From a virus, in IMG/VR virus record IMGVR_UViG_3300043446_003110: a DNA stretch of 64,000 nt, one strand, 5' to 3'. The notes beneath the pieces were generated by a model. The model was not told the origin of the DNA and searched no databases. It saw only the letters and a program-made list of their open reading frames with translations. The position numbers were made by a program, and so were the translations under genes. This document shows, one piece after another, positions 47,605 through 62,489 of this stretch. The first letter of the stretch is position 1; each line of letters begins with the position of its first letter.

Positions 47605-47651
47605 GGGGTGGGCCGCGTTCGCCGTAAACCCTTACTACATATAGACTTACG
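47605..47651 (+). repeat. 82-bp element copy 1 (partial: GC box + palindrome B)
   Basis: GGGGTGGGCCGCG + CGTAAACCCTTA-CTACA-TATAGACTTACG. Confidence 0.85.
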
Positions 47652-47866
47652 ACGATAATCATATGATCGACACGATCTACTGTTTAAGAGTTTTGGCATG
47701 GCATTTGCTATATAGCATATTCTGTACCAAACAAAATATTTTTCTTGGCATGATATTTGCTATATATAATCTTTCGATATTGTAAGAAAGATTTCCCTTG
47801 ACGATTCAAGAAAGCATGGTATAATGTCGATATAAGAAGTAAGAGAGAAAGAAAGAGAGAAAGAAA

Positions 47867-48091
47867 ATGAGAAACTTGGTTGTGTTCAATACGATGAGTG
47901 AGTTGGTTTCTTACCTTGACAACAATGGCCCCGATACGCTGGTGAATGTCGCAGCGTTCGGAATGGATCTTTTCGATTATGCTCGGGATAACGAGTATGA
48001 AATCGAAGTTGGTGAAGATGGTGGATATATTAGGATTGATGAAATGGGATATGTTGTGGAAGATTTCGCAATCGACAACGTTTGCGGATGA
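47867..48091 (+). CDS. Small acidic early protein
   Basis: 74 aa after promoter 47798. Confidence 0.7.
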   Translation: MRNLVVFNTMSELVSYLDNNGPDTLVNVAAFGMDLFDYARDNEYEIEVGEDGGYIRIDEMGYVVEDFAIDNVCG

Positions 48092-48180
48092 TACGGGGCA
48101 ACCTTACGAAAGATTAAGATTTAAGCCCTTGACAACCAAAAGCCGATAAGTATAATAGAATCAACACAAGGGAAAAAGAA

Positions 48181-48312
48181 ATGGAAACGCTAACGCTGAT
48201 CGTCGTGAAGGGTAAGTATAAGGTTTATTGGGAAATGGCTAACGGAAAGCGTATGTTGCTTGGATCATTTAAGACTTCCGCAGAGGCGGAAAGATTCATG
48301 AATGCCACTTGA
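48181..48312 (+). CDS. 43-aa early protein (paralog A)
   Basis: METLTLIVVKGKYKVYWEMANGKRMLLGSFKTSAEAERFMNAT; own promoter; paralog at 50068. Confidence 0.8.
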   Translation: METLTLIVVKGKYKVYWEMANGKRMLLGSFKTSAEAERFMNAT

Positions 48313-48363
48313 TAGGTCGATAAATATCTAGTAAAAATATAACTAACACTAAGTGAAAAGAAA

Positions 48364-48552
48364 ATGAATAGCCTTGACAAGATTCTATCTGCTATGCGTA
48401 CTGGTAAGTATGGTAGCGTTATCGACCCGAAGGGTAACGCTCATGTAGGTATTATCAACTCTATCATGCGAGAGGATGGTAGTGGAAAGAACTGGATCGT
48501 GACAGTGACCAACCGTACAGTAAGTGAACGGGTGTTCATTCACGCCAAGTAG
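48364..48552 (+). CDS. Hypothetical protein
   Basis: 62 aa, A-rich leader. Confidence 0.7.
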   Translation: MNSLDKILSAMRTGKYGSVIDPKGNAHVGIINSIMREDGSGKNWIVTVTNRTVSERVFIHAK

Positions 48553-48654
48553 TATCACACCATCCACGCGGATAAGGCACACCCCTAGCAGGAGGGGAGC
48601 AGTAGCAAATACTGTGCCAAAAAATCGCGGCATGGTATTTGCCTAGATACTTGA

Positions 48655-48736
48655 CGTAAATCCTTATACAGTAAGGACTTAGGGCAAATCGGGCGGGCCG
48701 CGTTCGTCGTAAACCCTTATGGCGTAAGGACTTAGG
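48655..48736 (+). repeat. 82-bp element copy 2
   Basis: Palindromes at 48655 and 48708, GC box 48691-48702. Confidence 0.95.
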
Positions 48737-48915
48737 ACTAATATGATGATCGACAAGATCTTCTGTTTAAAAAAATAAAATATTTGGCACGGGATTTGCT
48801 CTAGAGAATATTTCTTGTTTTGGCACAAGATTATTTTCAAAAATATTTCAGATTGCCTATTGACTTGGCCGATAAGTATGGTATAATAAGAGCATAAGAA
48901 AGAAAGAGAAAGAAA

Positions 48916-49140
48916 ATGGAAAAGGTTACTCACGTTAACGACTTCATCAACAGCCTTCCGCGAATCGTCGCCAAGAAGATTTGGCGGGTTACGGATGAGA
49001 ACGGTACGATTGTTCAGTGTGTTTCGGCTACGGACAATCGAAAGAGTACCGCACAGCGGTATATCGACAACAAGTATCCGGGTCAGGTTCTGACACTGAC
49101 TTTCGACCGTACCAGCGGTCATATCACGATCCCCCGATGA
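48916..49140 (+). CDS. Hypothetical protein
   Basis: 74 aa after promoter 48860. Confidence 0.7.
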   Translation: MEKVTHVNDFINSLPRIVAKKIWRVTDENGTIVQCVSATDNRKSTAQRYIDNKYPGQVLTLTFDRTSGHITIPR

Positions 49141-49207
49141 GAGGGGATTGACGGGGCGGAAAAGTTTCGGTAGAATCCATCCATCACTTCACTTCAAGGG
49201 GAAAATC

Positions 49208-49390
49208 ATGACCAACGATTTTGTCTACGATATGTCGGAAATCAACGAAGAGGAAATCATGCTGGGCTGGGAAGAACTGAACAGCGAGGAAGGTGAGGCC
49301 GACTACATCCCCGGCCTTGACGATGGAGAATGGATGGAAGAGGAAGAGGATGCCGATTGGGATTACTACGGGGAAGAGGAGTTTGCCTGA
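49208..49390 (+). CDS. Highly acidic 60-aa protein
   Basis: MTNDFVYDMSEINEEE...EEEFA; AAGGGG RBS. Confidence 0.7.
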   Translation: MTNDFVYDMSEINEEEIMLGWEELNSEEGEADYIPGLDDGEWMEEEEDADWDYYGEEEFA

Positions 49391-49485
49391 GAAAAATATT
49401 CTTTGGCATACCGTTTGCAGGCAGCGGTGATTGGCACACCGTTTGCTCTGCGGCGGATTGGTATGGGCTTTGCGTAGAGAGTTAA

Positions 49486-49567
49486 CGTAAATGCTTGCAG
49501 GATAAGGACTTAGGGCGAACGGGGCGGGCCGCGTTTGCCGTAAACCCTTATGGCATATAGACTTACA
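49486..49567 (+). repeat. 82-bp element copy 3
   Basis: Palindromes at 49486 and 49539. Confidence 0.95.
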
Positions 49568-49876
49568 TCTAATCATATGATCGTATCGAAGTGGTGTTTA
49601 GGGCCACAGCAAATATCGTGCCACGGAATAAAAAATCTCAACGCCTAGAATATGGGCATGGTAAGATAGGCAACCCGTTGCATATTGCTACATTACCTCA
49701 GTTTCACGGCGGAAATCACTAACGCAAAATGCTACAGGGTGTTGCAAAATGCTACGCTCAAAATCTAGGCACAAAAAATGTCATAGCGTTTTTCCCGCGA
49801 AATACGCAAAAAAAAATAATCTATGATTGGCACACCGATTGCTCTTATATATGGCATAAGAAAGTGAGAGTGAAAG

Positions 49877-50011
49877 ATGATGAATGATATCCTGATCGTG
49901 TCCGATTGCTGTGGGGCTGAAATGACCCCGATTCACGCCGAGCATGGCGTTTGTCCCCAGTGTGGTGAACACTGTGAGGCCGATATTCAAATCTGGCCGA
50001 TCCCCGAATAA
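49877..50011 (+). CDS. Small zinc-ribbon protein (44 aa)
   Basis: SDCCGAE...VCPQCGEHC; downstream of sigma54 box at 49828. Confidence 0.7.
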   Translation: MMNDILIVSDCCGAEMTPIHAEHGVCPQCGEHCEADIQIWPIPE

Positions 50012-50067
50012 GGGGGGTTGCGGCGGCGGGAAAAGTTTGATAGACTCTAAAAACAAAGGAAATGAAA

Positions 50068-50199
50068 ATGGAAACCATGACGATCATCGTAGTCGGAAAC
50101 AAGTTTAAGGTATACCGCGAGTGCGGAAACGGAAAGCGTGTGCTGTTGGGATCGTTCAAGACTTCGCACGAAGCGGAGCGATTCATGAACTCCCGCTAA
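50068..50199 (+). CDS. 43-aa early protein (paralog B)
   Basis: METMTIIVVGNKFKVYRECGNGKRVLLGSFKTSHEAERFMNSR; 31/43 identical to paralog A. Confidence 0.8.
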   Translation: METMTIIVVGNKFKVYRECGNGKRVLLGSFKTSHEAERFMNSR

Positions 50200-50259
50200 A
50201 GGGGGGTTGCGGCGGCGGAAAAGTTTGATAGAATCCACACTCACCCAAGGAAAAAGAAA

Positions 50260-50589
50260 ATGGCTACCAAGTTCAAAATCATCGAAGATGCAAAGCGTCA
50301 AGCACGATCCTGTTTTTTGGGAATCGCCATCCCTCACCAGCCATCCCTCGCCAGTGGGGAGTATGGCCCGATTCGCTCCGAAAAGGTTCTCAAGTTCAAT
50401 CGGAAAGCATTACTCCGAAAGAGGGGTAAGAGCAAGGAAAACGTCGATCCCCGCCTAATGGGGGGTAGCGATCTCATGATTGACAAGGTGGGCAAACCGG
50501 GAAGCCGTGAGAGGGTAGAGGCTTTGCGGGCTATGTATGAAATGTTCGCAGCCGCAGGGCAGGAAGTCTCCGCGTTCTACGACGAATAG
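50260..50589 (+). CDS. Hypothetical basic protein
   Basis: 109 aa, AAGGA RBS, own promoter. Confidence 0.75.
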   Translation: MATKFKIIEDAKRQARSCFLGIAIPHQPSLASGEYGPIRSEKVLKFNRKALLRKRGKSKENVDPRLMGGSDLMIDKVGKPGSRERVEALRAMYEMFAAAGQEVSAFYDE

Positions 50590-50765
50590 GGGGTTTTGGT
50601 AAGATAGGCAATCTAGGGGGTTTGGAGAAGATGGGGAGTCTCGGCCAAAGTGGCCGGATCATAAACCTTGCGAGATAGTCAGCGAGAATATTGTATTTTG
50701 TTGTTGACTTTTAAAGTCTAGGCTGTAGAATACCGATATAAGTAGTAACCAAAGGAAAAAGAAAA

Positions 50766-51065
50766 ATGAACTATCTTGAAGCCGTTGCTATGGTTCGTGG
50801 TAAGACTAACAAGAATACCCGCAAGGTTGGAAATAATACCTACGCTGAAATCGAATATGATAAGAGCGTTTCTATCCGCCTGCATGGTACTACCGTTGTG
50901 CGGTTTTATCCTAACGGGCTTGTAAAGTTGAATAGTGGCGGTTATCATACGCACACCACGAAAAAGCGTATTAACCAGTATTCTCCCGTGCGAGTTTACC
51001 AAAAAAACTTTGATTGGTTTTTGAGTGATGGTACTCCGTTCGAAGATAACATTTTAGTTTCATAA
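50766..51065 (+). CDS. Hypothetical phage protein
   Basis: IRLHGT...LNSGGYHTHTTKKRIN motif. Confidence 0.75.
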   Translation: MNYLEAVAMVRGKTNKNTRKVGNNTYAEIEYDKSVSIRLHGTTVVRFYPNGLVKLNSGGYHTHTTKKRINQYSPVRVYQKNFDWFLSDGTPFEDNILVS

Positions 51066-51080
51066 AGTAAGGAGCCAAGG

Positions 51081-51188
51081 ATGGCAGATATGTTTATAGA
51101 TTGGAACAGTTTTGGTGTGGGACTTGTTTTTGGTATTGTTTGCGTTTGGTTTGTTTCTGATCTTGTTTTTCCAATAAGGAAGAAATGA
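51081..51188 (+). CDS. Small membrane peptide
   Basis: 35 aa with one hydrophobic helix, AAGGAG RBS. Confidence 0.5.
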   Translation: MADMFIDWNSFGVGLVFGIVCVWFVSDLVFPIRKK

Positions 51189-51268
51189 ATATGTGTACAC
51201 TGGACAAGATTACACTAGCGGTGTCGTTTGCGGTGGGATGCGTGGCAGCTTGGATTGTGAACAGTTGA
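51185..51268 (+). CDS. Small membrane peptide
   Basis: 27 aa hydrophobic, ATGA overlap. Confidence 0.4.
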   Translation: MNMCTLDKITLAVSFAVGCVAAWIVNS

Positions 51269-51316
51269 CGTAACTCTATATCTGACAAGGGTTTACGACG
51301 AACGGGGCGGGCCGCC
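51269..51316 (+). repeat. 82-bp element copy 4 (palindrome A + GC box; B replaced by a sigma54 box pair)
   Basis: CGTAACTCTATA-TCTGA-CAAGGGTTTACG then GGGGCGGGCCGC. Confidence 0.85.
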
Positions 51317-51469
51317 GCCGTTTTTTGGCATGGTATTTGCTACATAGCAAGTCATGTGCCAAAAGTAGCCAGAATCCTGTCATCTTTTTAAGAAAAAATA
51401 TTTGTAGGTTGGGGCTTGACGTAGCCGATAATAGGTGTAGAATCAGAGCATCACCAAGGGAGAAATGAA

Positions 51470-51649
51470 ATGAGCATCTTTGAAGATACCGACGCGATCA
51501 ACGCCATCCTCGCTGAACTGGCCGCGAATGAGTCGGTCGAGCCGATGGTCGAGCCGATTGACGATCCCAGCGTGGAAGTCAACTTTTGGGATTGGGCGGA
51601 TATTGTTGGTGCTGTTGACGATTTCATTCCAGAGGAGTATACTGTATGA
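51470..51649 (+). CDS. Acidic 59-aa protein
   Basis: MSIFEDTDAINAILAEL...EEYTV; after promoter 51416. Confidence 0.7.
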   Translation: MSIFEDTDAINAILAELAANESVEPMVEPIDDPSVEVNFWDWADIVGAVDDFIPEEYTV

Positions 51650-51891
51650 GTCACCCTGACCCCTGTTTCGATCCCGCTAACTCTTATGAGGATGATATGA
51701 ACGATAACTATGATGATTTCTGTGATTTCAACGATGACTATGAAAGCCACCGTGACGATTACTATGATGATAGCATGGACGGCGATCATGACTCCGCGAT
51801 GACTTCCGCCGGTTGGGGAACCGATGAGGATTACGGTTCCTATGGTGATGATATCGACGCTTTCCACGATTACTATGGAGATGATTTCTGA
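51646..51891 (+). CDS. Asp/Tyr-rich acidic protein
   Basis: 81 aa, DGDHDSAMTSAGWGTDEDYG motif. Confidence 0.75.
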   Translation: MSHPDPCFDPANSYEDDMNDNYDDFCDFNDDYESHRDDYYDDSMDGDHDSAMTSAGWGTDEDYGSYGDDIDAFHDYYGDDF

Positions 51892-52220
51892 TGTATAACG
51901 GATATACTAACTACGAAACGTGGGTTGTAAATCTGTGGATTGACAATGAGCAAGGCTCACGCGATCACTGGGTTGGTATCGCAGAGTATATTTACAAGCA
52001 TCGTGCGGAAGAGCAAAAGCATTTTTCTAAAATGGATGATGCTATTTATATTCTGGCAGATAAGTTGAAAGAAGATCATGAAGAGGCTAAGGATGAAATC
52101 CTTGAGAATATGAAGTTGACTTCTAGCCTTTGGGCTGATTTGCTTGGTGCGGCACTGAGTGAAACTAACTGGCGAGAAATCGCTAGTAATCTTCTGGAAA
52201 ATGTTGAAGTTGAGGCTTGA
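51891..52220 (+). CDS. Hypothetical phage protein
   Basis: YNGYTNYETW..NLWIDN N-terminal motif. Confidence 0.75.
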   Translation: MYNGYTNYETWVVNLWIDNEQGSRDHWVGIAEYIYKHRAEEQKHFSKMDDAIYILADKLKEDHEEAKDEILENMKLTSSLWADLLGAALSETNWREIASNLLENVEVEA

Positions 52221-52282
52221 CACTGGCCGATAACTAGTGTACAATGGTTGAAAAGGTTTACCCACTAAGGAGTTGATTAGGT

Positions 52283-52687
52283 ATGAATGATGCGTTTACG
52301 GTTGGTGTGATTGTTGCTTGTGCCGCTGCGGCGGTTGCTGTTTTCTTTCTCTATAACGTCTATAGGGGTGTGCATGATAGCCTTGCTAATGCTGTTATTG
52401 GTTCTGTATATAACTTTCGATACTTCCAACCATTGAGTGGTGATTATGAGCGTTATCTTGCAAAGGTTGTTGATATTCGTAATCTGACGCAGGCTGAAAT
52501 CTCGCGTTTGAACTGGACGAGCGATTACCGTCAATATGATAAGAACTTCCATCGTTCACCTACGCTTGTTACATGTAAGATGAGCAACGGTGACTATCGC
52601 CAGTTTTATGCAGAGCGTAGTGATATGTGCAAGCGTACAGCGGTTGGTAACTTGCTTTATAACATGGGTGTAGCATATCTGTTCTGA
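52283..52687 (+). CDS. Membrane-anchored hypothetical protein
   Basis: N-terminal TM helix, AAGGAG RBS. Confidence 0.75.
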   Translation: MNDAFTVGVIVACAAAAVAVFFLYNVYRGVHDSLANAVIGSVYNFRYFQPLSGDYERYLAKVVDIRNLTQAEISRLNWTSDYRQYDKNFHRSPTLVTCKMSNGDYRQFYAERSDMCKRTAVGNLLYNMGVAYLF

Positions 52688-52722
52688 TGTACACTAACTA
52701 ACCCGACAACCTAGACCCTAAT

Positions 52723-52804
52723 CCTAAGTCCTTACGGGACAAGGGTTTAGGGCTAGGCGGGCGGGCCGCGTTCAACGTAAACCCTTACGCCACAACACTT
52801 TACG
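52723..52804 (+). repeat. 82-bp element copy 5
   Basis: Palindromes at 52723 and 52776. Confidence 0.95.
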
Positions 52805-52896
52805 ACAAATCAAAAAATCTTTTATTTTCTGCTTGACAGGCTAAAGTTCCAGTGGTAGAATGTCGATATTAGAAGTAGAAGAAAGAGAGTGAAAAG

Positions 52897-53184
52897 ATGA
52901 GCAATCCCTATTCGCCGTATTGGCTTGGTAATACCCTAAACTTTACCTATCATGGTAAGAATGTCTGGGCAACTATTCTGAAGTTTGGTAAGGATTGGAT
53001 TACTTGTATCACAAAGGACGGCTATCGTACTTATAAGTGGAACAAGATGAGTCCCACACTATTGTATCAGTGCAGGGTGAGTGATTTGATTGTGCATTAT
53101 GAGCGATATGGTAATATGGATTTTGAATATCTGTATCGCTACTATGGACCGTCAACTCCTACGATTCAGTGGAAAGAGGATTAA
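52897..53184 (+). CDS. Hypothetical protein
   Basis: 95 aa after promoter 52833. Confidence 0.7.
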   Translation: MSNPYSPYWLGNTLNFTYHGKNVWATILKFGKDWITCITKDGYRTYKWNKMSPTLLYQCRVSDLIVHYERYGNMDFEYLYRYYGPSTPTIQWKED

Positions 53185-53185
53185 T

Positions 53186-53350
53186 ATGTCAATATGGGAT
53201 GAATGCGTACATTGTGATGAAACGGCAGATTTGGTAGTTTGGGAGGAATGGGTAAACTACGTAGAACAGGGTGGTTTGTCTCTCCCTAAGAATGAAGATC
53301 GATGTTGTGCAGATAGTCAGCGTCAGCGAAACGGTACACTAAGTAGGTGA
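53186..53350 (+). CDS. Small Cys-containing protein
   Basis: MSIWDECVHCDE..., GAGG RBS. Confidence 0.55.
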   Translation: MSIWDECVHCDETADLVVWEEWVNYVEQGGLSLPKNEDRCCADSQRQRNGTLSR

Positions 53351-53416
53351 GAAACGGTACACTTGACAAACTAAACTTTTTAAGGTAGAATGTCGATACA
53401 TACGTTAGGAGAAAAT

Positions 53417-53614
53417 ATGAAACACTTTGTTAAACTTTCTAATGGCAAAACTGCTGTTCTTATTGAAGAAGATAATGCCCTGAGTATTGCCCTAGGTGAT
53501 GGAGATGGAGATATTGACATATACATAGCACAGATTACAAGGGATGGTGTGCTTGCGTACTCAACTGCCGCATGGGCGCCAGAGGATATTTCTACAGGAT
53601 TGAAAAATGAGTAA
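53417..53614 (+). CDS. Hypothetical protein
   Basis: AGGAG RBS, promoter 53363. Confidence 0.65.
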   Translation: MKHFVKLSNGKTAVLIEEDNALSIALGDGDGDIDIYIAQITRDGVLAYSTAAWAPEDISTGLKNE

Positions 53615-53840
53615 TATATTTGGGACGTATACGAGTAAAGAAATCAAGAGCGTTATCAAGAAGCCATTTCATGAGTGGCCCGAAGATATCACTATGTATT
53701 TGCAGGACATTATGGCATATGAACTCATGGATCAGTGGCTAGAGAATCACTCTGACGAAGAATATGTAGAATATATTGAGAATATTGTGGACGATCTTAC
53801 CTCCCATATTGAGGATAATGACGAAGATTTAGACAGTTGA
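53607..53840 (+). CDS. Acidic hypothetical protein
   Basis: 77 aa. Confidence 0.65.
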   Translation: MSNIFGTYTSKEIKSVIKKPFHEWPEDITMYLQDIMAYELMDQWLENHSDEEYVEYIENIVDDLTSHIEDNDEDLDS

Positions 53841-53920
53841 CAACATACGGGTCTATGGTAGAATGATATCAAAGAAGCCATAGATAAAAGACAGTCGAGT
53901 ATGGCAGACACCCGTATTTT

Positions 53921-53993
53921 GGGTCATTAGCTCAGTTGGTAGAGCAAGGAGCTTTTAACTCTTTGGCCGTAGGTTCGAGTCCTACATGACCCA
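53921..53993 (+). tRNA. tRNA-Lys(UUU)
   Basis: Cloverleaf GGGTCAT/ATGACCC, anticodon loop CTTTTAA, GTTCGAGT T-loop. Confidence 0.92.
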
Positions 53994-54000
53994 TTATTTT

Positions 54001-54007
54001 GTGTATA
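54001..54007 (+). promoter_or_regulatory. Late promoter motif GTGTATA upstream of endonuclease
   Basis: Same motif as in the late block. Confidence 0.6.
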
Positions 54008-54049
54008 ATATAGTAACGGACAATGAATCCGCTACTTAAGGAGAATATT

Positions 54050-54463
54050 ATGCACAGTAAGAGAAAAGGGAATATAGGTCAGTTTGCAATAGCATTAGAA
54101 CTATCTAGATTAGGATACTCAGTTTTTACTGAGGAAGGGGATATATCAAAGATAGACATCATCGCAGAAAAAGATGGAAAACTAATAAGGATACAATCAA
54201 AAGCAATAACACCAAAAAATAATACTCTGACATTATCAGTTAAGAAAAGTGGGCCAAACTATCATTATATATATGAACAGGGTATATTTGATTTTTTTGG
54301 TATTGTAGATTTAGAGGATGGAAAGGTATACCTAGTTCCAGATAAGATATTATCAGAATATACTAGCTCTTTTGCATTAAGAAAAATACCGTCTAAGAAT
54401 AATCAAAGCAAAAATGTGCATGATGCCGCCGATTATCTTTTGGAAAAAGTCTTGACAAAGTAG
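54050..54463 (+). CDS. PD-(D/E)XK (homing-type) endonuclease
   Basis: KRKGNIG...LGYSV...IDIIAE...IRIQSK; AT-rich insert between tRNAs; AAGGAG RBS. Confidence 0.8.
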   Translation: MHSKRKGNIGQFAIALELSRLGYSVFTEEGDISKIDIIAEKDGKLIRIQSKAITPKNNTLTLSVKKSGPNYHYIYEQGIFDFFGIVDLEDGKVYLVPDKILSEYTSSFALRKIPSKNNQSKNVHDAADYLLEKVLTK

Positions 54464-54512
54464 CGTGTATAAAGTATAATAGATAAACCATCCTCTAACC
54501 TCCCGGAATACC

Positions 54513-54659: not shown

Positions 54660-54671
54660 GTTGCGGTGGTT

Positions 54672-54814: not shown

Positions 54815-54817
54815 TAT

Positions 54818-54889: not shown

Positions 54890-54892
54890 TTT

Positions 54893-54965: not shown

Positions 54966-54970
54966 CTCGT

Positions 54971-55018
54971 CGTAAGTCCTTATCTAGCAAGTATTTAGGA
55001 ACAACGGGGCGGGCCGCG
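54971..55018 (+). repeat. 82-bp element copy 6 (palindrome A + GC box)
   Basis: CGTAAGTCCTTA-TCTAG-CAAGTATTTAGG then GGGGCGGGCCGCG. Confidence 0.85.
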
Positions 55019-55103
55019 TTTTCCATGCCAAAGATTTTCTAAATATTTCCCCTTGACAGTGCCGATATAGAGTGTAGAATCGGTGAACACAAGGGAGAAA
55101 GTT

Positions 55104-55808
55104 ATGAAAGTCGCAAACGGTAATGATAAGTTAGGCAAGGGTTGCTTGGTCGTTTCTAGGCCAGTTGGTGATACTTGCCCGTCAACGTGTGCATTTTTGG
55201 GTAACGGTTGCTATGCAGAGCAAACCGAGAAGATGTATCCTAACGTGCGTCCTGCTGGTATGCAGAATGTAATCACTGAGCGTGGCCGCATTCGCTCTAT
55301 GATTCTCGACGCTATTCGTCAAGGTAAGTCTATTCGCTGGCATGAGCGTGGTGATTGGTTCCTCGACGGTAAACTTGACACCGACTACGTTGATAATGTA
55401 GTGTGGGCTTGCGAGAGTATTCTTGCCGATGGTACTACACTTCCCGATATGTGGTTTTATACGCATATCTACGATAGTCGCCTTGTGGCTATGGAAAAGT
55501 ATATGAATGTATATGCTAGTGTGCATAACGCTAATGATAAGGCTACGGCATCACTCGCCGGTTTCAAACTGTTCGCATGGTGCGATAGCGACGAGAAGAT
55601 TGCAAAGAAACGCCCCAAGCGTAAGGCTGCGGCGGAAGCGTGGCGTAAGAGTCTCCCGAAACTGGTGATTCTTGACGGCGAAAAGTTTATCACTTGCCCA
55701 GAAATCCGTCGTGGTCGTGGGATTGTGACTTGCACACCGACTAAGGGTAGTGTAGACTGTAATCTGTGCGTCAAGGGTTTGGCTAACGTTCTTTTTCCCT
55801 CTCACTAA
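55104..55808 (+). CDS. Gp88-like Cys-rich (radical-SAM-related) phage protein
   Basis: TCPSTC...CYA, IRWHERGDW, WFYTH, C-terminal CP...C..C. Confidence 0.6.
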   Translation: MKVANGNDKLGKGCLVVSRPVGDTCPSTCAFLGNGCYAEQTEKMYPNVRPAGMQNVITERGRIRSMILDAIRQGKSIRWHERGDWFLDGKLDTDYVDNVVWACESILADGTTLPDMWFYTHIYDSRLVAMEKYMNVYASVHNANDKATASLAGFKLFAWCDSDEKIAKKRPKRKAAAEAWRKSLPKLVILDGEKFITCPEIRRGRGIVTCTPTKGSVDCNLCVKGLANVLFPSH

Positions 55809-55816
55809 GGATAAAT

Positions 55817-56032
55817 ATGGAAACCTTTACATATACTTGCGTTACACTTAGAGACTTTTGTGACTATGCCGATTGGGATTATGATTATGTTCTGGATGAA
55901 CTGCTAGAGAGTGATGTTAGTTGGGGAACTAATGATGATACATTGGTAACTCCAGAAACTGTTGCTCATATTTGTGAATATGCTGTGCCAGAAGGTATTG
56001 ATAAAAACCTTATGATTAGCCTTGGGGGTTGA
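55817..56032 (+). CDS. Acidic hypothetical protein
   Basis: 71 aa, AAGGA RBS. Confidence 0.7.
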   Translation: METFTYTCVTLRDFCDYADWDYDYVLDELLESDVSWGTNDDTLVTPETVAHICEYAVPEGIDKNLMISLGG

Positions 56033-56034
56033 AT

Positions 56035-56541
56035 ATGTATACTATCGTTAAGAAGCGTAGCGGTATGGGTTGTGCTTCCGCGTTCCATAAACTCAAGGGG
56101 TATAAGGATCGTGGATTTAAAATATTTGATAGTAAAGATAGTGCAGAGATTGCCCATACTAATCAAGTAGAACTGTCTATGTATAATCTCGCCCCGTATG
56201 TTTATAGTCAAGTCGGGCGTGTGCGTAAGAGTGATGGTAGTCTAACTCACTGGGGATTCATTACTGAAATCGCGGAACTAATCTGCTGTCCCGGTAATGG
56301 TTGCTACTGTTGTGATCGTGAAGGTATAGAAGATGATTATGAGTATGAGATTAGCAATCTTACTAACGAAATGGAAGAACATGGATTTAGTTTTGGAGAT
56401 AATCATGCCGGTAATGTAGGCTTCGTCAAACGTAACGGAGTAGACGTTATGGTGTGTATCGATACTGGAGATGAGAGCGTAGTGAACGAAGATCGTTGCT
56501 ACTGTATCACTTGCAGAAAGGGCGGTTGCTGCCATGTGTAA
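56035..56541 (+). CDS. Minimal protein-kinase-like protein
   Basis: SGMGCAS loop, GFKIF, LAPYVY, FITE, DNHAGNV catalytic loop, IDTG. Confidence 0.65.
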   Translation: MYTIVKKRSGMGCASAFHKLKGYKDRGFKIFDSKDSAEIAHTNQVELSMYNLAPYVYSQVGRVRKSDGSLTHWGFITEIAELICCPGNGCYCCDREGIEDDYEYEISNLTNEMEEHGFSFGDNHAGNVGFVKRNGVDVMVCIDTGDESVVNEDRCYCITCRKGGCCHV

Positions 56542-56761
56542 GTATTACATTAAGTCTAACACGCTAGAACTTATCTACTCTACAGATAAAACTCCACTTG
56601 AGGCTGCGGTAGTAGCACTAGGTGAGACTAATAAGTTTGACATATTAGATGAATATTTTTATATTGACGAGCGTGGTATGAAAGATTATGCCACAGCAAA
56701 ACCTGACACTATTGTAATCCCTACTAAACTGGTCGCGGCAGAAGCCGGTTGGACAATGTGA
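56534..56761 (+). CDS. Hypothetical protein
   Basis: 75 aa coupled to upstream gene. Confidence 0.65.
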   Translation: MCKYYIKSNTLELIYSTDKTPLEAAVVALGETNKFDILDEYFYIDERGMKDYATAKPDTIVIPTKLVAAEAGWTM

Positions 56762-56843
56762 CGTAAACCCTTGTCGCTATTAGAGTTACGGCGAACGGGG
56801 CCGGGGAGATTTGACGTAAACCCTTATCAAATATAGACTTACA
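56762..56843 (+). repeat. 82-bp element copy 7 (variant GC box)
   Basis: Palindromes at 56762 and 56815. Confidence 0.9.
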
Positions 56844-56906
56844 ACCTAAAGTTTTTTCTTGACAGTGCCGATAGGTATGGTACGATACTTGCATAGGAGA
56901 CAAGGT

Positions 56907-57098
56907 ATGTATATTTGGAGAGTCTGGAAGAATAACCGGTTTGCGGGATATGTATCGTCTGCTAGCCAGTTCGATGCGTATCTTAGGGCAACTGAGCAAT
57001 ATGGGCAAAATGTGTGGGTTGAGCGGACTGTAGAATACAAGGTGGTGTACCACCCAAATAACCAAGATCATTTTGTGGGGGATAGTCAGCCAGCCTAA
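56907..57098 (+). CDS. Hypothetical protein
   Basis: AGGAG RBS, promoter 56859. Confidence 0.65.
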   Translation: MYIWRVWKNNRFAGYVSSASQFDAYLRATEQYGQNVWVERTVEYKVVYHPNNQDHFVGDSQPA

Positions 57099-57130
57099 AG
57101 TTTCTAGAACAGAATGTCGATAATCCTTAT

Positions 57131-57478
57131 ATGAAAAAGGAGAAAGGCATCATGATTCAGTGGATTGGCGTGATCATCACGATTTGTGGATTGGTGTATA
57201 CGGGCTTCAAGGACGTTCAAAATGGCAATATAAAAATCCCGTCAATATCTCAAAACGAGGTCTTGACAAAAACAAACTATCCTATACAATACTGTCTAAT
57301 GGCTTACGATCCTAACACTGACAAGGTTTACTATCAACACGAAAACGGAATATGGTATGATTACCCTCCACAACAACGACGATATGCGGCCACGCCGCAA
57401 CGTAATCAAAATCAAGAAAGTTATGCCTTGGGAAATCCGTCAGGGACACCAAGAGCATCGGGATACGGTGTTCGATAA
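57131..57478 (+). CDS. Membrane-anchored hypothetical protein
   Basis: N-terminal TM segment. Confidence 0.55.
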   Translation: MKKEKGIMIQWIGVIITICGLVYTGFKDVQNGNIKIPSISQNEVLTKTNYPIQYCLMAYDPNTDKVYYQHENGIWYDYPPQQRRYAATPQRNQNQESYALGNPSGTPRASGYGVR

Positions 57479-57545
57479 TCGCCCCAAGCGTCAACGTACC
57501 CGTGGTGCTATTGACAAGCAGTGGCGTAAGGAGTATGATGTATGA
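57357..57545 (+). CDS. Small basic protein
   Basis: DNRPKRQRTR; promoter 57263 lies inside the upstream ORF; ATGA coupling to next gene. Confidence 0.55.
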   Translation: MITLHNNDDMRPRRNVIKIKKVMPWEIRQGHQEHRDTVFDNRPKRQRTRGAIDKQWRKEYDV

Positions 57546-57697
57546 GCATGGTATGTCAAGATTGCGAAAGCGACAACATTGGATGGGATGCTTGGGTTGA
57601 CCAAGATGGTAATGTTGTTGGTGGCCCGTATGATAACTGTCAATGTATGGATTGTGGTTCAGACAACGTAGAAGAAGAAAGGGATATCTATGCCTAA
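57542..57697 (+). CDS. Small zinc-ribbon protein (51 aa)
   Basis: CQDCESDN...CMDCGSDN. Confidence 0.7.
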   Translation: MSMVCQDCESDNIGWDAWVDQDGNVVGGPYDNCQCMDCGSDNVEEERDIYA

Positions 57698-58163
57698 CTG
57701 GTGCATGAACACTCTGACCGTTTCCCATACCGATAAGGATATGGTTCAGAAGTTTGCTGACGCATGGAATACTGGAGCAGTGTGCGAACAGTTTATTCCC
57801 AAGCCGCCAGAAGAAGATTGGTACTCTTGGAATGTCTCTAACTGGGGAACCAAGTGGGACTTTGGACTTGATAAGAACTTTGATGAACCCGTTACTGTCA
57901 AGCAGAACGGCGATAAGTATGAAGTTTGTGTTGCTCCTAACACAGCATGGTCGCCACCTATTGACTTCTATAACCATCTGGTAGAACTGGGATATAATGT
58001 TCACGCCAGTTATTTTGAGCCGGGAATGGGATTCTGTGGTATTTACCATGACGGCTATGATAACTACATTGACTATGGCGATGATAAGGATAGTATTCCA
58101 GTAGGTGTGTGGAATGACTTCGGCTTGGATGAGTTCTTTGAGATGATGGAGGAAGAAGCATGA
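57690..58163 (+). CDS. DUF1281/YubB ferredoxin-like domain protein
   Basis: MPNWC.N, WYSWNVSNWGTKWD, TAWSPP, YFEPGMGFCG. Confidence 0.8.
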   Translation: MPNWCMNTLTVSHTDKDMVQKFADAWNTGAVCEQFIPKPPEEDWYSWNVSNWGTKWDFGLDKNFDEPVTVKQNGDKYEVCVAPNTAWSPPIDFYNHLVELGYNVHASYFEPGMGFCGIYHDGYDNYIDYGDDKDSIPVGVWNDFGLDEFFEMMEEEA

Positions 58164-58570
58164 TCAAGGTACGCTATCATTTGCAAGAAGGCCAGCATTA
58201 TAAGCACTGGCAGTTCAAGGATACTAAAACTAAGGACGTATGGTATGTAAATCCTAATGATGGAATAATCACCCTCAATAACTGTGTGCTGCATAACAAT
58301 CGTAATGTGGCAGACAAGATTTATATGGGGGCTAATAAGGATGTCTGTGCATGGATCAAGTGTAAGGGCGTCATTCATAACTTCGATAAAGAGATTCCCT
58401 CTTGGTGTACGCACCTAAAGTATGACCCTAGGAAACTTCCTTACTGGCATACTTGGTCAGGAAGAAACATTGACGGTTTTGCATTTGACACTCTCTACCT
58501 TACACCTAAAGGCGTATACTACAACGAATGTAGGAATGGTATCCTAAATCCTTTGAAAATAACGACTTAG
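58160..58570 (+). CDS. Hypothetical phage protein
   Basis: VRYHLQEGQHYKHWQ...KDVCAWI...YDPRK. Confidence 0.75.
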   Translation: MIKVRYHLQEGQHYKHWQFKDTKTKDVWYVNPNDGIITLNNCVLHNNRNVADKIYMGANKDVCAWIKCKGVIHNFDKEIPSWCTHLKYDPRKLPYWHTWSGRNIDGFAFDTLYLTPKGVYYNECRNGILNPLKITT

Positions 58571-58624
58571 GAGAAACGCGGCCCGCCCCCTTGCTTCTAA
58601 ACCCTTACCAGCAAACGACTTAGA
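58543..58624 (-). repeat. 82-bp element copy 8 (inverted)
   Basis: Palindromes at 58543 and 58596, CGCGGCCCGCCCC core. Confidence 0.92.
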
Positions 58625-58685
58625 ACTAAAAAAATATTTTTAAGGTTATGGGCTTGACAGGACGATAATAGAGTGTACAATACAG

Positions 58686-59295
58686 GAGTCAAGCAAACGC
58701 TTGTTGGTTATGTCGGGCCGAGTAACCGTAAAACTGAGGATCAGTGTCCTAGGAAACGCTGGTTCTAATCGGTCAAACAATACAAACATTCGTGGGTCTA
58801 TGCTCAGGGACTAGATAAGGTTAAGCCATTACGATAAACCTACTGTCCGTCATGCGGGTCATGCGGGGTGGGGTTGACAGCGGGCTTAAACGCTGTATAG
58901 TAGTGCTTATCTATGGGGGATAGCGTCCTCACCACGATTCAATACAAGGACCATCGGTTGTACAAGCCGGAAAAAATGTGAATAGAGTTTGTTTAAGAAG
59001 GCGAATGTCTTCCGCTCTATTGTGGCCCTTACAATACAATCACACGTTGGATATTATCCTTTACTATGTATGGCGAACAGCCTAGACATTGCAATGCTAC
59101 ATGGCCGTGTGATACAATACAACCAGTAACCGTTCCCAAGAGCCAGACCAAAACGGGTCTTATGTGCTAGCAATGCCCGTTTTGCAGGGAGGATTTCCGT
59201 GGACGGTTTCCACCAGTTTTAACCTTGCTCCAAGGGTTCAAAATATCGGAGTATTGGTGGATTATAGGATCGGGGCGTAAAAGATCCGCTGGTAA
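58686..59295 (+). ncRNA. Putative array of five structured ncRNAs separated by CAATACAA
   Basis: No + strand ORF; own sigma70 promoter; 6-9-bp stems within the units. Confidence 0.6.
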
Positions 59296-59303
59296 CAAAA
59301 CAT

Positions 59304-59501
59304 ATGAAAATAACTAAACAACAAATAACCGACGCTCTTGGTATTGATAGTGATGATCTATCTAAGAAAGAACTCACTATTGCACTAAGAAATCTTGAGA
59401 ATATACTTGACGATGTTGCAGAAGATATTGAAGATGATTTTAAATCTGCTGCTTTAGGCGATGCTTCTAACCTAATCCAAATGATAAGGAACGGGCTGTG
59501 A
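59304..59501 (+). CDS. Hypothetical protein
   Basis: 65 aa. Confidence 0.65.
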   Translation: MKITKQQITDALGIDSDDLSKKELTIALRNLENILDDVAEDIEDDFKSAALGDASNLIQMIRNGL

Positions 59502-59665
59502 CCGACAAAGAAAAGGCGATGCTTAAGATTCTGAAAGTCTTGAAGAGCATGATGGGCGTCACTAATAGATTTAATCGTGAAGAAGCCTTGACTCTCGCCA
59601 AAGAGCATGGTATAACTGTGGAAGATTTGATTGATATGGCACACCAAATAGCAATGAGTGTCTAA
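59498..59665 (+). CDS. Hypothetical protein (55 aa)
   Basis: GTG start overlapping upstream stop; manual translation. Confidence 0.55.
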   Translation: MTDKEKAMLKILKVLKSMMGVTNRFNREEALTLAKEHGITVEDLIDMAHQIAMSV

Positions 59666-59940
59666 TGGAATGGATTAGTTTTCATGGGCCTCGTCGCCCA
59701 ATCAATGGTCAAAAAATCATCTATTATGGTGAGGCTATTGGTGTGTGGCGTGGGGTTTATAAGATAAACTATGAGGATAAGTTTTGTATTCATAATATCT
59801 ACTGTGAGGATGGTTGGGGAAATGTAGATTATATGGATGCTCCATGGTGGATGCCAGATTTAGGACAAGAGAAACCACAACCACCTAGTGAAGATTACCC
59901 TCCCGATTACCCTTGGATTACTAATAAGGAAAACAAATGA
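59665..59940 (+). CDS. Hypothetical protein (DUF551-like)
   Basis: MEWIS...P...WWMP pattern. Confidence 0.55.
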   Translation: MEWISFHGPRRPINGQKIIYYGEAIGVWRGVYKINYEDKFCIHNIYCEDGWGNVDYMDAPWWMPDLGQEKPQPPSEDYPPDYPWITNKENK

Positions 59941-60293
59941 TTAACGTTGGTATGACGATTCGTGAGATGGTGAGCATTGCTACTTCCACCAACAGCCCCG
60001 ATCTTTACGAGAGGATCATCAAGGCTTTGGAACTGGCTACTGGCAATGAGAAGTTGCTGGTGGCTTGCAAGGGTGTTGACTATGATGGTCAATACTGGGA
60101 TCACAAGATCGCTGCCATTAAGGTTCTGCGTCTGGCTACCGGTTGGGGACTCAGGGAGAGCAAGGATTGGGTTGAGAGTTGCCAATACGACTCCAAGACC
60201 AACTTCTCGCCTCCTCTTGATCCCGCTTCAGCACAAAAACTGTGCGACGAACTCAAGGCGTGTGGTATGGCTTGTTGGACCACTAACTCTTGA
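59937..60293 (+). CDS. Protein with ribosomal L7/L12 C-terminal-like domain
   Basis: KIAAIKVLRLATGWGLRESKDWVE resembles the bL12 CTD motif. Confidence 0.7.
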   Translation: MINVGMTIREMVSIATSTNSPDLYERIIKALELATGNEKLLVACKGVDYDGQYWDHKIAAIKVLRLATGWGLRESKDWVESCQYDSKTNFSPPLDPASAQKLCDELKACGMACWTTNS

Positions 60294-60300
60294 AGCTCGC

Positions 60301-60382
60301 CTTAAGTCCTTATCCCACAAGGATTTAGGACCAAGGCGGCGGGCCGCGTTTGCCGTAAGTCCTTACCTCACAACGACTTATG
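60301..60382 (+). repeat. 82-bp element copy 9
   Basis: Palindromes at 60301 and 60354. Confidence 0.95.
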
Positions 60383-60487
60383 ACGAATAAATATTTTTTC
60401 AAGGAACAGGGGTTGACAGGACGATATACTATGGTAGAATGATTGAAGTAATGGTTGATAACACTAACACTTGTAAGGAGTTTGATT

Positions 60488-60751
60488 ATGCAGAAGTATA
60501 CGTTTGTGGTTGATGTGGTTTCGGATTCGGCTATCGACGCGAACGCTGTTCGTGCTTCGCTGCTGGAGACTGTGGATGGTATCGGTACGATTTCTGCCGT
60601 GCATCCGGCGAAGGTTGATTCGCTCAAGGAGCAGGGCTTCAAGGTTTGGCGGGCTAGGGTTGCTGGCGTCAAGGAACCGCCGAAGGTCAAGGCTCCCAAG
60701 GCTCCCAAGGCTGCGAAGGCCGAGGCCGAGGTTGCTACGGCGACCGCTTGA
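60488..60751 (+). CDS. Protein with Lys/Ala/Pro-rich tail
   Basis: PKVKAPKAPKAAKA; AAGGAG RBS. Confidence 0.75.
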   Translation: MQKYTFVVDVVSDSAIDANAVRASLLETVDGIGTISAVHPAKVDSLKEQGFKVWRARVAGVKEPPKVKAPKAPKAAKAEAEVATATA

Positions 60752-60838
60752 TTTTCTAAAGATTGTCTGCTAGAATGTCGATACTGGTGAAGTAGTAGTA
60801 GCCAGTATCCATTCTAGCCCACTAACTAGGAGATTACA

Positions 60839-61198
60839 ATGGGTTTGGATCAGTTCGCACATGCTGTCGATAACAATGGAGAGAAGGAAGAACTCGCCTA
60901 CTGGCGTAAGCATCCTAATCTTCAAGGTTGGATGGAGGATCTGTGGGTTAGTAAGGGTCGCCCTAATGCCCACGAAGATAATCCCAACGAGTTTAACTGT
61001 ATTCCAGTTGAACTTACTAAGGAAGATCTGGATAGTCTAGAGCAGGATGTTACTAATGCTAATCTGCCAGACACCGTAGGTTTTTTCTTTGGTAGCAATA
61101 GCGATGCTGTCTACGGGCAACAAGACTTGGAGTTTGTTATGAAGGCCCGAGAGGCTCTTGACAACGGACTGACCGTAGTGTATGATAGTTGGTGGTGA
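60839..61198 (+). CDS. Hypothetical phage protein
   Basis: MGLDQ...YWRKHPNLQGWM...YDSWW. Confidence 0.8.
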   Translation: MGLDQFAHAVDNNGEKEELAYWRKHPNLQGWMEDLWVSKGRPNAHEDNPNEFNCIPVELTKEDLDSLEQDVTNANLPDTVGFFFGSNSDAVYGQQDLEFVMKAREALDNGLTVVYDSWW

Positions 61199-61224
61199 CA
61201 TTCCGATAATAACGAGGAAATAAG

Positions 61225-61368
61225 ATGAAGATTCTTGGTTTGAATGACGATACTAAGTACGGTAAGGTGGTTAGTATCTCGCGTGATGGTGTGACGTTTG
61301 ATTCTAATGGTAAGAGGGTTGTGTATACCCTCGCTGATGTTGAGAAGATGTTTACTCAAGGAGAATGA
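61225..61368 (+). CDS. Small hypothetical protein (47 aa)
   Basis: GAGG RBS; manual translation. Confidence 0.6.
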   Translation: MKILGLNDDTKYGKVVSISRDGVTFDSNGKRVVYTLADVEKMFTQGE

Positions 61369-61583
61369 AGATGTCGAATAACTTTGCTAGCCTTCGTAAG
61401 AACCGCCATATCAAGTGCAAGTATCCGCTGCACGGTAATAAGAACGTGCTGAAGTATCACGTTGGTCGTATTGAGCGTGTTGGTACTGGTCCGAATGGCC
61501 GATATGCCGTGGTTCGTTCTATGGACCAGACTGTGCGTACACTGTTGTGCGACAAGATGATCGAAACGAAGTGCTATCGTTGA
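61365..61583 (+). CDS. Small basic protein
   Basis: 72 aa, AAGGAG RBS. Confidence 0.65.
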   Translation: MKMSNNFASLRKNRHIKCKYPLHGNKNVLKYHVGRIERVGTGPNGRYAVVRSMDQTVRTLLCDKMIETKCYR

Positions 61584-61640
61584 TTCTCCCTTGAGTGTAC
61601 GGGTGGCGTGTGGTATAATAGCCCGCGTCACCCGTATCAT

Positions 61641-61716
61641 GGGGCGTAAGGTAAGCCGGTTGCATCCGACACTCTTATAAGGTGTTCATAGGTACGTTCG
61701 ACTCGTACACGCCCTA
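61641..61716 (+). tRNA. tRNA-Ile(UAU)
   Basis: GGGGCGT/ACGCCCT acceptor, ACACT-CTTATAA-GGTGT anticodon arm, GTACG-TTCGACT-CGTAC T arm; atypical D arm. Confidence 0.8.
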
Positions 61717-61864
61717 CTGTTCTTTTTTGTAACAGTTTAGGGAGATCATTTGATAGAACTCATGATTATGATTTTCGTTTGGAGTATGTTGTATCAAGAT
61801 AAGTAAATCGGAATAGTTTGACTAATAAAGTAACCAATATTCCCCCAAACATTTAGAGGTAAAC

Positions 61865-62044
61865 ATGCAAGTAAAAGAAGTCAAAATCATGATGCATCTA
61901 TGTCTGCATAACATGCCCGATGTCAAGACTAAGGCAGAGATAGCAGAGACAATCAATCGTTATATTTACGAAGACCCCGAGTTCTTTGGTCAGATTGACG
62001 AAGATAACATTCTAGATGTAAGAGAGTATGAGGTTAACGTATGA
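61865..62044 (+). CDS. Hypothetical protein (59 aa)
   Basis: GAGG RBS; ATGA coupling. Confidence 0.6.
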   Translation: MQVKEVKIMMHLCLHNMPDVKTKAEIAETINRYIYEDPEFFGQIDEDNILDVREYEVNV

Positions 62045-62253
62045 ACGAACTGGTAGCCACCTATGTTATGGATGATGTACACTATGATATTTATGCGTGT
62101 TATGATTCTGCTGATGCTATGGATATTCGTGATGTATCTTTCTATGACGTTTACAACCAAAAGACGGGAGAATGTGTAAACGAGGGTTATCCCTTGTATA
62201 CTATGCCAACGTGGAATGACGTTTTCCATATCTATTACTCACCGGTGAAATAA
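62041..62253 (+). CDS. Hypothetical protein
   Basis: 70 aa. Confidence 0.65.
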   Translation: MNELVATYVMDDVHYDIYACYDSADAMDIRDVSFYDVYNQKTGECVNEGYPLYTMPTWNDVFHIYYSPVK

Positions 62254-62435
62254 TGTACCACTACGTTACTATAGAAGTTGTTATGCGTAACTGTAAATCA
62301 GCAGAGGACGCTAAACAGAAATGCGAGGCTTTACTTCCCCAGTTTCCAGATGAGAATACAACCTATATGGAGTCGTGGGAAATAACTAGGTCTGTTTCTC
62401 CGTTTGCCGTAAGTCCTGTGCCACCAAATGTTTAG
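62253..62435 (+). CDS. Hypothetical protein; C-terminus runs into repeat copy 10
   Basis: 60 aa. Confidence 0.5.
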   Translation: MYHYVTIEVVMRNCKSAEDAKQKCEALLPQFPDENTTYMESWEITRSVSPFAVSPVPPNV

Positions 62436-62489
62436 GACCGACGCGGCCCGCCCCGCTGATCGTAAGTCCTTATCTACCAACAACTTACG
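62408..62489 (-). repeat. 82-bp element copy 10 (inverted)
   Basis: Palindromes at 62408 and 62461, CGCGGCCCGCCCC core. Confidence 0.92.

Follow-up and report, generated by a model that had tools for sequence, protein, structure and literature searches.

What keeps an 82-bp repeat in place ten times among the early genes of a phage, with its two halves at one fixed distance? The question is raised by a 64,000-nt stretch of viral DNA, IMG/VR record IMGVR_UViG_3300043446_003110 (the whole stretch is referred to below as the window). The repeat consists of two 29-bp palindromes, P1 and P2, on the two sides of a GC-rich box (GC box). The window is a part of a ~161-kb uncultured siphophage. Its first 47.4 kb form a minus-strand structural (late) block with the tape measure gene (452–6856), the terminase gene (38722–40710), and tail fibres inside. 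From 47.6 kb onward, it is followed by a plus-strand (early) block with small genes, six tRNAs, and many strong sigma70-type promoters. The GC content was 41–48% in the early block vs. 30–44% (mostly 30–39%) in the structural block. On balance, we lean towards reading the 82-bp element as a phased cis-acting module that binds protein on double-stranded DNA (dsDNA) and controls the sigma70-type early promoters.

Anatomy of the element and the nature of the site

The ten-copy repeat of the original prediction proved to be real. Seven full and three half copies with 17 palindromes were found, all at 47.6–62.5 kb, and a repeat search of the window independently recovered the 82-nt family. The predicted invariant TAA-N19-TTA was present at its expected places in 17/17 palindromes, and P2 started 53 bp past P1 in all seven full copies. 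The pattern TAA-N4-TT-N7-AA-N4-TTA, with no more than one mismatch, had 33 matches (12.8 expected), 16 of which were the reported palindromes; the remaining matches were dispersed in the late block at chance level. The GC box GGCGGGCCGCG, also with one mismatch at most, was detected nine times (0.07 expected), always within elements. Intercopy spacings were 831–2248 bp, in agreement with the recurrence every 0.8–2.3 kb noted earlier, and nhmmer gave zero copies in the window outside 47.6–62.5 kb, as expected from the reported absence of the element from the late block.

A megablast search of the region against 50,697 cultured phages yielded zero matches. Cultured terminase relatives reached just 25–30% identity, so that no annotated relative was usable. 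IMG/VR contained hundreds of contigs with a terminase 76–95% identical to that of the window, and more than 4,500 terminase relatives of the phage were present in the protein database. A profile built from the seven full copies of the window was run over 1.4 Mb of fetched loci. It produced 333 non-overlapping matches, 228 of them full length and 186 unique. With 180 of the 186 unique full copies free of indels, the offset of 53 bp is all but invariant; when the 548 pairs of neighbouring palindromes from all the fetched loci were counted, 342 were at 53 bp and 56 at 52 bp. Across the 186 copies, TAA, TT, AA, and TTA were near-invariant, GTCC/GGAC between them was moderately conserved, and the central five bases were free. 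Five complete or near-complete relatives (149–238 kb) carried 7–25 full elements each, confined to one contiguous early block of 15–22 kb. The position of this block relative to the contig ends differed among three contigs with terminal repeats. The terminases of three of the five genomes were 55–56% identical to that of the window, and the architecture is therefore old within the clade.

If transcribed, the palindromes could be hairpins that terminate, process (in an RNase III-type manner), or stabilise the upstream mRNA. Such an RNA-level signal would agree with the location of elements at the 3' ends of genes and tRNAs, with the folding of single copies at −25 to −35 kcal/mol, with the copy 4 variant, which is a GC hairpin followed by T6, and with T-runs after some a-type palindromes in other phages. 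The comparative counts pointed in the opposite direction. Arm mismatches had been described as non-compensatory, and this held on the 186 copies as well as on 80 diverse copies. At the variable arm positions of the 186 copies, Watson-Crick pairs did not exceed the expectation under independence (e.g., 52 observed vs. 84 expected at one pair). In the 80 diverse copies, 67.8% of cells were paired vs. 70.1% in column shuffles, and the covariation score was 0.090 vs. 0.119 in shuffled alignments (500/500 shuffles were higher). Perfect complementarity was avoided: the perfect half-site TAAGTCCTT occurred on both arms of one palindrome in 0/372 cases (12.2 and 8.3 expected), and arms in direct orientation showed a positive association. 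The stems are imperfect and A/T-rich, the loop is fixed in length and free in sequence, and the sense strand of P1 mostly contains A·C and C·A mismatches. A scan for intrinsic terminators found none at the elements besides the copy 4 variant, which was also the only one among the ten copies to look like an intrinsic terminator. A search of Rfam with solitary palindromes (20 loci) gave no match, and over 47–64 kb at E ≤ 1, tRNAs were the sole matches. Thus, an RNA-level role appears very unlikely. Two specific RNA models were rejected. In a two-hairpin model, the folds of single copies looked stable, with the comparative counts against it; for a long central hairpin, the pairing counts were no better. 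The preference for dsDNA recognition over an RNA hairpin, already expressed in the original prediction, is supported by the pairing counts, the covariation, and the avoidance of perfect arms. Judged from these alignments, the palindrome is best regarded as a dyad-symmetric duplex-DNA binding site selected against hairpin or cruciform perfection, not as an RNA or single-strand structure.

The element is also polar. After 258 unique copies had been oriented by the surrounding promoters, each of the four arms showed position-specific variants relative to the direction of transcription: the first arm was mainly TAAAC/GCCTT, and the last arm was mainly TAAGTCGTT, TAAGTTGTT, or TAAAGTGTT. The GC core read CGCGGCCCGCCCC in 22% of copies. 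The arm variants and the linker flanks were unmoved in these copies; therefore, only the central ~15 bp are inverted, not the whole element. Accordingly, the inverted GC box noted in copies 8 and 10 was seen, with the flip limited to the ~15-bp core and the element itself in the usual orientation. Short inverted repeats are present on both sides of the core, from which we infer template switching during replication as the probable cause of the flips.

Helical register with the early promoters

A sigma70-type promoter had been predicted to follow the elements, and a sigma70-like −35 box was indeed located no more than ~30 bp downstream of copies 5–10. In 156 oriented copies with a strong promoter, the distance from the P2 centre to the first base of the −35 hexamer peaked at 33, 43–44, 54, 65–66, and 77 bp. 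After collapse to 106 sequence clusters, the Rayleigh R was 0.55 at a period of ~11 bp, a value reached in 0/5,000 uniform resamples (p < 2e-4). The same spacer lengths were found in unrelated spacer sequences, including those with an inserted sigma54-like box, which argues for selection on helical phase. The spacers contained an UP-like A/T tract and a CCGATA motif common to many promoters. These distances place the proximal site near −68, −79, −89, −100, or −112; the distal site is five turns further upstream, on the same face of the helix. Copies 5, 8, 9, and 10 of the window belong to the 43–45 bp class. The suggestion that the repeats build a phased nucleoprotein structure is supported by the indel-free 53 bp (180/186) together with the helical register with the −35 box, and such a structure is probable.

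The mechanism we propose is as follows. The element would offer two dyad sites, cgTAAGTCCTTr-N5-yAAGGACTTAcg, each usually with one strong and one weakened half-site. Their centres are exactly 53 bp (about five turns) apart and flank a GC-rich core, the orientation of which seems to be indifferent. We infer that a sequence-specific protein occupies both sites on one face of the helix, in the simplest case as two dimers or as a dimer of dimers. The complex would stand in helical register with the UP-like tract and the −35 box of the next strong promoter of the sigma70 type. It could set the output of this promoter, either activating it or shutting it off in a timed manner, and may protect it from read-through as well.

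The same arrangement might be expected of a topology or boundary element, i.e., a site for a DNA-wrapping or road-blocking complex (gyrase, another topoisomerase, a nucleoid protein, or an insulator) that stands between strongly transcribed tandem units and absorbs supercoils or stops read-through, as proposed for repetitive extragenic palindromes (REPs) and bacterial interspersed mosaic elements (BIMEs). The element always has the end of one unit on one side and the next strong promoter on the other, canonical intrinsic terminators are lacking in the early block, and a core that may face either way fits a structural role. A fixed spacing of 53 bp, in which the GC core is offset by half a turn from the A/T contacts, would go well with DNA wrapping. 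However, near-invariant bases and the dependence on GTCC are unlike the degenerate sites of gyrase or nucleoid proteins, the arms are polar with respect to transcription, and solitary copies occur in phages without arrays of strong promoters. The −35 register speaks for RNA polymerase and not for bulk topology. We consider a topological or boundary role rather unlikely and keep to promoter control as the preferred reading.

The promoters of the early block seem to fall into two families, and the sequences suggest that these may differ in timing. The first has the spacer motif TTGACA-nn-GCCGATA-...-TG-TAnAAT (48856–48894, 51412–51450, 55049–55087, 56855–56893, 58650–58688, 62514–62552, and 62772–62810). 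The second (52832, 53362, and 60747) has CTAAAG in the spacer and TAGAATGTCGATA.

Ten exact TGGCA-N6-TTGC boxes of the sigma54 type (−24/−12) were found on both strands at 47694–51361, with 0.5 expected for the whole window. Some of them stand face to face as a palindrome (51326–51361) or back to back (48605–48645), and relatives have such boxes as insertions between element and −35 box, with the helical phase kept. A sigma54 enhancer, or upstream activating sequence, has two dyad sites ~80–150 bp upstream of a −24/−12 promoter. This geometry fits copy 2 and some relatives, with TGGCAC-N5-TTGC between the element and the −35 box; copies 5–10 have no such box.

All ten copies are on the plus strand, and several abut or contain stop codons or the end of tRNA-Glu, as the original prediction had noted for upstream gene ends. 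Copy 1 is a right half (47602–47654; nhmmer model positions 37–89) at the junction of the late (minus-strand) and early (plus-strand) blocks, with the GC box variant GGGTGGGCCGCG at 47606–47617 and P2 at 47623–47651; it has half-copy orthologs in relatives L001, L003, L005, and L009. Full copies 2 (48651–48739; P1 48655–48683, GC box 48691–48702, P2 48708–48736) and 3 (49483–49570; P1 49486–49514, GC box 49522–49533, P2 49539–49567) come next. A 32-bp conserved box (TAATCATATGATCGACACGATCTACTGTTTAA-like) directly follows copies 1–3 (47656–47687, 48739–48770, and 49570–49601) and likewise their orthologs. Copy 4 is a left half (51266–51325; P1 51269–51297), in which the GC box is altered to GGCGG-GCCG-CCGCC and succeeded by T6.

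Copy 5 is full (52720–52807; P1 52723–52751, GC box 52759–52770, P2 52776–52804), with the −35 box TTGACA at 52833, 43 bp from the P2 centre. The module after it (52808–52861, plus strand) exemplifies the general layout, in which a UP-like spacer rich in A/T leads to a sigma70-type promoter (here TTGACA-N17-TAGAAT). Equivalent plus-strand promoters are located at 55053–55080, 56859–56886, 58654–58681, 60413–60440, and 62518–62545. Copy 6 is a left half (54968–55024; P1 54971–54999, GC box 55007–55018) that begins 2 bp past tRNA-Glu and has its −35 box at 55053. Copy 7 is full (56759–56845; P1 56762–56790, P2 56815–56843) with the variant GC box GGGCCGGGGAGA; the open reading frame (ORF) 56534–56761 has its stop codon within TGACGTAA, and P2 is promoter-like by itself (TTGACG-N17-TAGACT). 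Full copy 8 (58541–58627; P1 58543–58571, P2 58596–58624) has the inverted GC core; its P1 contains the end of ORF 58160–58570, and the −35 box at 58654 is 44 bp from the P2 centre. Copy 9 (60299–60385; P1 60301–60329, GC box 60337–60348, P2 60354–60382) is full, with the −35 box at 60413, 45 bp from the P2 centre. Copy 10 (62405–62493; P1 62408–62436, P2 62461–62489), full and with the inverted core, contains the end of ORF 62253–62435 in P1 and has the −35 box at 62518, 43 bp from the P2 centre.

Several other features of the early block were recorded. A PD-(D/E)XK endonuclease gene (PF11645, 54023–54463) lies between tRNA genes, and 59937–60293 encodes a small protein with a domain similar to the C-terminal domain of ribosomal L7/L12. 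Positions 48214–48302 and 50101–50189 belong to a pair of paralogous small genes (73% identity over 89 nt), and purine-rich leaders (GAAAGAAAGAGA) are repeated ahead of several start codons. Downstream of the strong promoter at 58654, ~640 bp (58654–59295) contain no convincing ORF and are partially conserved in the close relatives G002 and G003; an Rfam scan of this segment gave no match.

Gene exchange, spread in viruses, and the search for a reader

Synteny between the window and G002/G003 was mostly kept, and most elements were orthologous. Some indels and module swaps started exactly at an element, e.g., at 62379/62410, 54970, and 48692. A 558-bp gene abuts copy 10 in the relatives, homology with them resumes at the first base of copy 6, and the module after copy 2 resembles the module after copy 1 of G003. 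Directly upstream of the copy 10 ortholog, both relatives have a gene for a protein of 153 amino acids (L138:15720–16181; G003:157219–157680) that is absent from the window; of the small proteins, this one alone had a BLASTP match in G009, an unrelated carrier (31% identity over 70 amino acids). The proposal that the elements delimit exchangeable cassettes was borne out weakly. In seven genome pairs, 19 of 110 gene-content break edges were no more than 40 bp from an element vs. 11.8 expected (~1.6-fold), and many breaks fell at promoters or elsewhere. Homologous recombination between copies may occasionally reshuffle neighbouring genes, which does not look like the purpose of the element and would rather be a side effect.

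A dedicated recombination site, either an 11-7-11 core for a tyrosine recombinase or a type IB topoisomerase-like enzyme or a cassette linker like those of PeSL (promoter-early stem-loop) or attC, would be consistent with this enrichment, with the 11-7-11 layout, with the inner ends of many arms, which read (C/T)CCTT, and with the occurrence of the GC core both ways round. The predicted resemblance to a tyrosine-recombinase core did not hold, as the central 5–7 bp vary between copies, which would block strand exchange, and the five complete genomes contained no recognisable integrase or type IB topoisomerase. Specifically, PF00589 was not found in G001, G003, G004, G005, and G009 and was found in all control genomes; PF01028 (type IB topoisomerase) was not found in these five genomes either. 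The pentamer (C/T)CCTT of the poxvirus-type topoisomerase site was present in only about half of the arms, with its CC only moderately conserved. Conservation of the arm sequence and not of the pairing is the opposite of integron attC. Moreover, most gene-content breaks were away from elements, copy 8 showed neither a target-site duplication nor a clean empty site in relatives, and 53 bp is too short for recombinase-mediated inversion. A dedicated recombination site is thus unlikely.

Mobile insertion was tried for copy 8, which has no ortholog in G002 and G003, and was rejected: comparison with their element-free site revealed no duplication and no clean boundary. More generally, the copy number, the terminal inverted symmetry, the half copies, and the presence/absence difference between close relatives at copy 8 could be those of a selfish repeat (similar to REPs or to miniature inverted-repeat transposable elements) spreading in intergenic DNA without function for the phage. 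Yet target-site duplications and clean insertions were lacking, the copies were mostly syntenic orthologs among G002, G003, and the window, and they were confined to one block. The architecture, the strict spacing, and the promoter register were kept at 55% terminase identity. Outside viruses, the G-type palindrome was at chance in 401 Pseudomonadota, and the composite occurred in no bona fide bacterial chromosome. Of the explanations considered, a functionless selfish repeat is the one we credit least.

Exact pattern scans of IMG/VR showed that the palindrome is not limited to this phage group. The perfect form TAAGTCCTT-N7-AAGGACTTA was found in 77 stretches (87 sites). Of these sites, 21 belonged to composite elements with the 53-bp spacing, and 66, from 61 loci of 31–66% GC, were solitary or otherwise arranged. 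Control patterns were rare: none with the arm shuffled, four stretches with the outer TAAG changed, and one with TAA and TT kept and the core changed (CTGC). The heterotypic form TAAAYCCTT-N7-AAGGACTTA was present in at least 119 stretches, with 40 sites outside any composite element; the a-type perfect form was also frequent, part of it being ordinary terminators with T-runs.

The core of an IHF site is YAA-N4-TTR, in which the sequence of N4 is free. The half-sites had been compared with this core, and their invariant positions do match it; the conserved WAT flank is absent. The 77 stretches with GTCC vs. one with the core changed indicate that the core sequence matters, which argues against recognition of the IHF type, as does the lack of HU/IHF genes in these phages. 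Thus, the likeness to the IHF core was not upheld.

Among the carriers of the palindrome are contigs in which a T4-type capsid gene was found (member L267) and promoter contexts of the Bacteroidota type, where the palindrome is followed by a DnaA box. Palindromes were observed 4–5 bp from DnaA boxes (TTATCCACA) in unrelated contigs (L275:7273–7320, L278:1360–1406, and L288:2366–2410), ~50 bp upstream of three DnaA boxes in a row (L277:7616–7720), and ~37 bp from a single one (L305:5735–5805). To judge from this arrangement, palindrome plus DnaA box is probably a different composite on the same palindrome. The carrier G009, a complete genome of 210 kb with 57% GC and without detectable terminase similarity, has a 570-bp non-coding hub with four palindromes and a long perfect hairpin (G009:188450–188990; L453:1950–2490), which looks like a regulatory or origin-like region. 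Another unrelated phage contig encodes a pistol ribozyme above the Rfam gathering threshold (L289:2873–2923).

In 401 Pseudomonadota genomes, the solitary G-type palindrome was no commoner than its backward control, and in species-representative genomes, the composite signature was met only in small mis-binned phage contigs and in chance matches of GC-rich genomes. Together with the enrichment in viruses, the chance level in Pseudomonadota shows that the palindrome is specific to viruses and has a much wider spread than the 82-bp composite. Tentatively, TAAGTCCTT-N7-AAGGACTTA may be a virus-specific signal common to T4-like, Bacteroidota-type, and siphophage-clade phages; its reader would then be a widespread factor, possibly a new family of small DNA-binding proteins encoded by phages, or else a conserved surface on the transcription machinery of the host. 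If so, one large clade of aquatic phages would have multiplied the 82-bp composite before its early promoters as a modular and helically phased "enhancer/insulator".

Searches with Pfam and PHROGs revealed no DNA-binding domain in ~30 early proteins, the HU/IHF families were not found in the complete genomes of the group, and the genes adjoining solitary palindromes had no common family. Eight early genes were common to all five complete or near-complete genomes. One of them (50260–50589) encodes a basic protein of 109 amino acids with 1,672 homologs, of which the best 120 were ~70–100% identical; its predicted structure was poor (predicted local distance difference test score, pLDDT, of 60), and Pfam, PDB, and Atlas gave no lead.

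Several points weigh against promoter control by a bound protein. All the evidence is comparative. A strong consensus promoter was present within ~83 bp of the P2 centre (the search extended 100 bp beyond the element end) in only ~60% of oriented copies, and an element is missing from more than half of the early promoters of the window. In other phages, no clear distance rule was apparent for solitary palindromes; 17 of 96 had a sigma70-like promoter nearby. No recognisable helix-turn-helix, ribbon-helix-helix, or HU/IHF gene was found among the early genes or beside solitary palindromes, and G009 and G003, complete and unrelated carriers, have only four weak protein matches in common, none of them informative. 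Finally, immediate-early promoters must fire before any phage product is synthesised and cannot depend on one, which makes the timing of a phage-encoded reader hard to explain.

Significance and comparison with known systems

Hardly anything is known of how uncultured aquatic phages control their early genes, and the element is a concrete candidate for such control with an exact geometry. The 53 bp between the sites and the ~11-bp steps to the promoter can be transferred to reporter plasmids, and finding the reader of the palindrome could reveal a widely used phage regulator. As a compact and portable part, the element could also serve to tune strong promoters. The repeat is, moreover, a marker of the gene-variable early block and so helps to annotate metagenomic phage contigs.

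The claim that the system is undescribed stands: no matching family was found in Rfam or in the searchable literature, where queries on the motif and on phage intergenic palindromes returned nothing relevant. Likenesses to the BirA operator (a-type arms, N15), to the arms of the Flp recombination target (FRT), to the PP7 operator, and to Shine-Dalgarno/anti-Shine-Dalgarno pairing were judged coincidental or unsupported.

REPs are chromosomal and GC-rich; they are conserved as hairpins, and RAYT transposases mobilise them. The element resembles REPs and BIMEs in its mosaic build, with imperfect palindromes and a linker, and in its location where transcription units end; in contrast to them, it shows selection against hairpin perfection, and its palindrome is at chance level in the 401 Pseudomonadota genomes. 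The stoperators of cluster A mycobacteriophages (bound by L5 gp71) are single asymmetric 13-bp sites distributed genome-wide in a temperate phage with a known repressor. They share with the element the dozens of binding-site copies in short intergenic gaps and the polarity relative to transcription. The element, however, consists of paired dyads, is restricted to the early block and phased with promoters, and no repressor was recognised.

Phased upstream activation is known from rrnB P1, with three Fis sites and an UP element, and from class I CRP sites. There, as here, the sites are upstream of an UP-like A/T tract, in steps of about one turn and on one face relative to RNA polymerase. The sequence of the element fits neither consensus, and two sites 53 bp apart around a GC core, repeated 7–25 times per phage block, distinguish it from both.

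The closest described analogue is, by its layout, the PeSL cassette of T4-type phages, which is defined by a stable terminating stem-loop and has a variable placement relative to the promoter (Arbiol et al. 2010, PMC2839356). Like PeSL, the element is a regulatory cassette repeated between the genes of a variable early region rich in small orphan genes, and in both, a G/C-run motif is combined with a tract rich in A/T and a strong promoter of the sigma70 type. The promoter TTGACA-N16–17-TAnAAT with an UP-like tract, which follows most elements, is a common feature as well, and single gains, losses, or swaps of adjoining genes at the element recall those at PeSL. The enrichment of break points at the element is weak in comparison, and its host genome is that of a siphophage unrelated to T4. 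What sets the element apart from PeSL is two 29-bp dyad sites at a fixed 53 bp, free of selection for pairing and in helical register with the −35 box.

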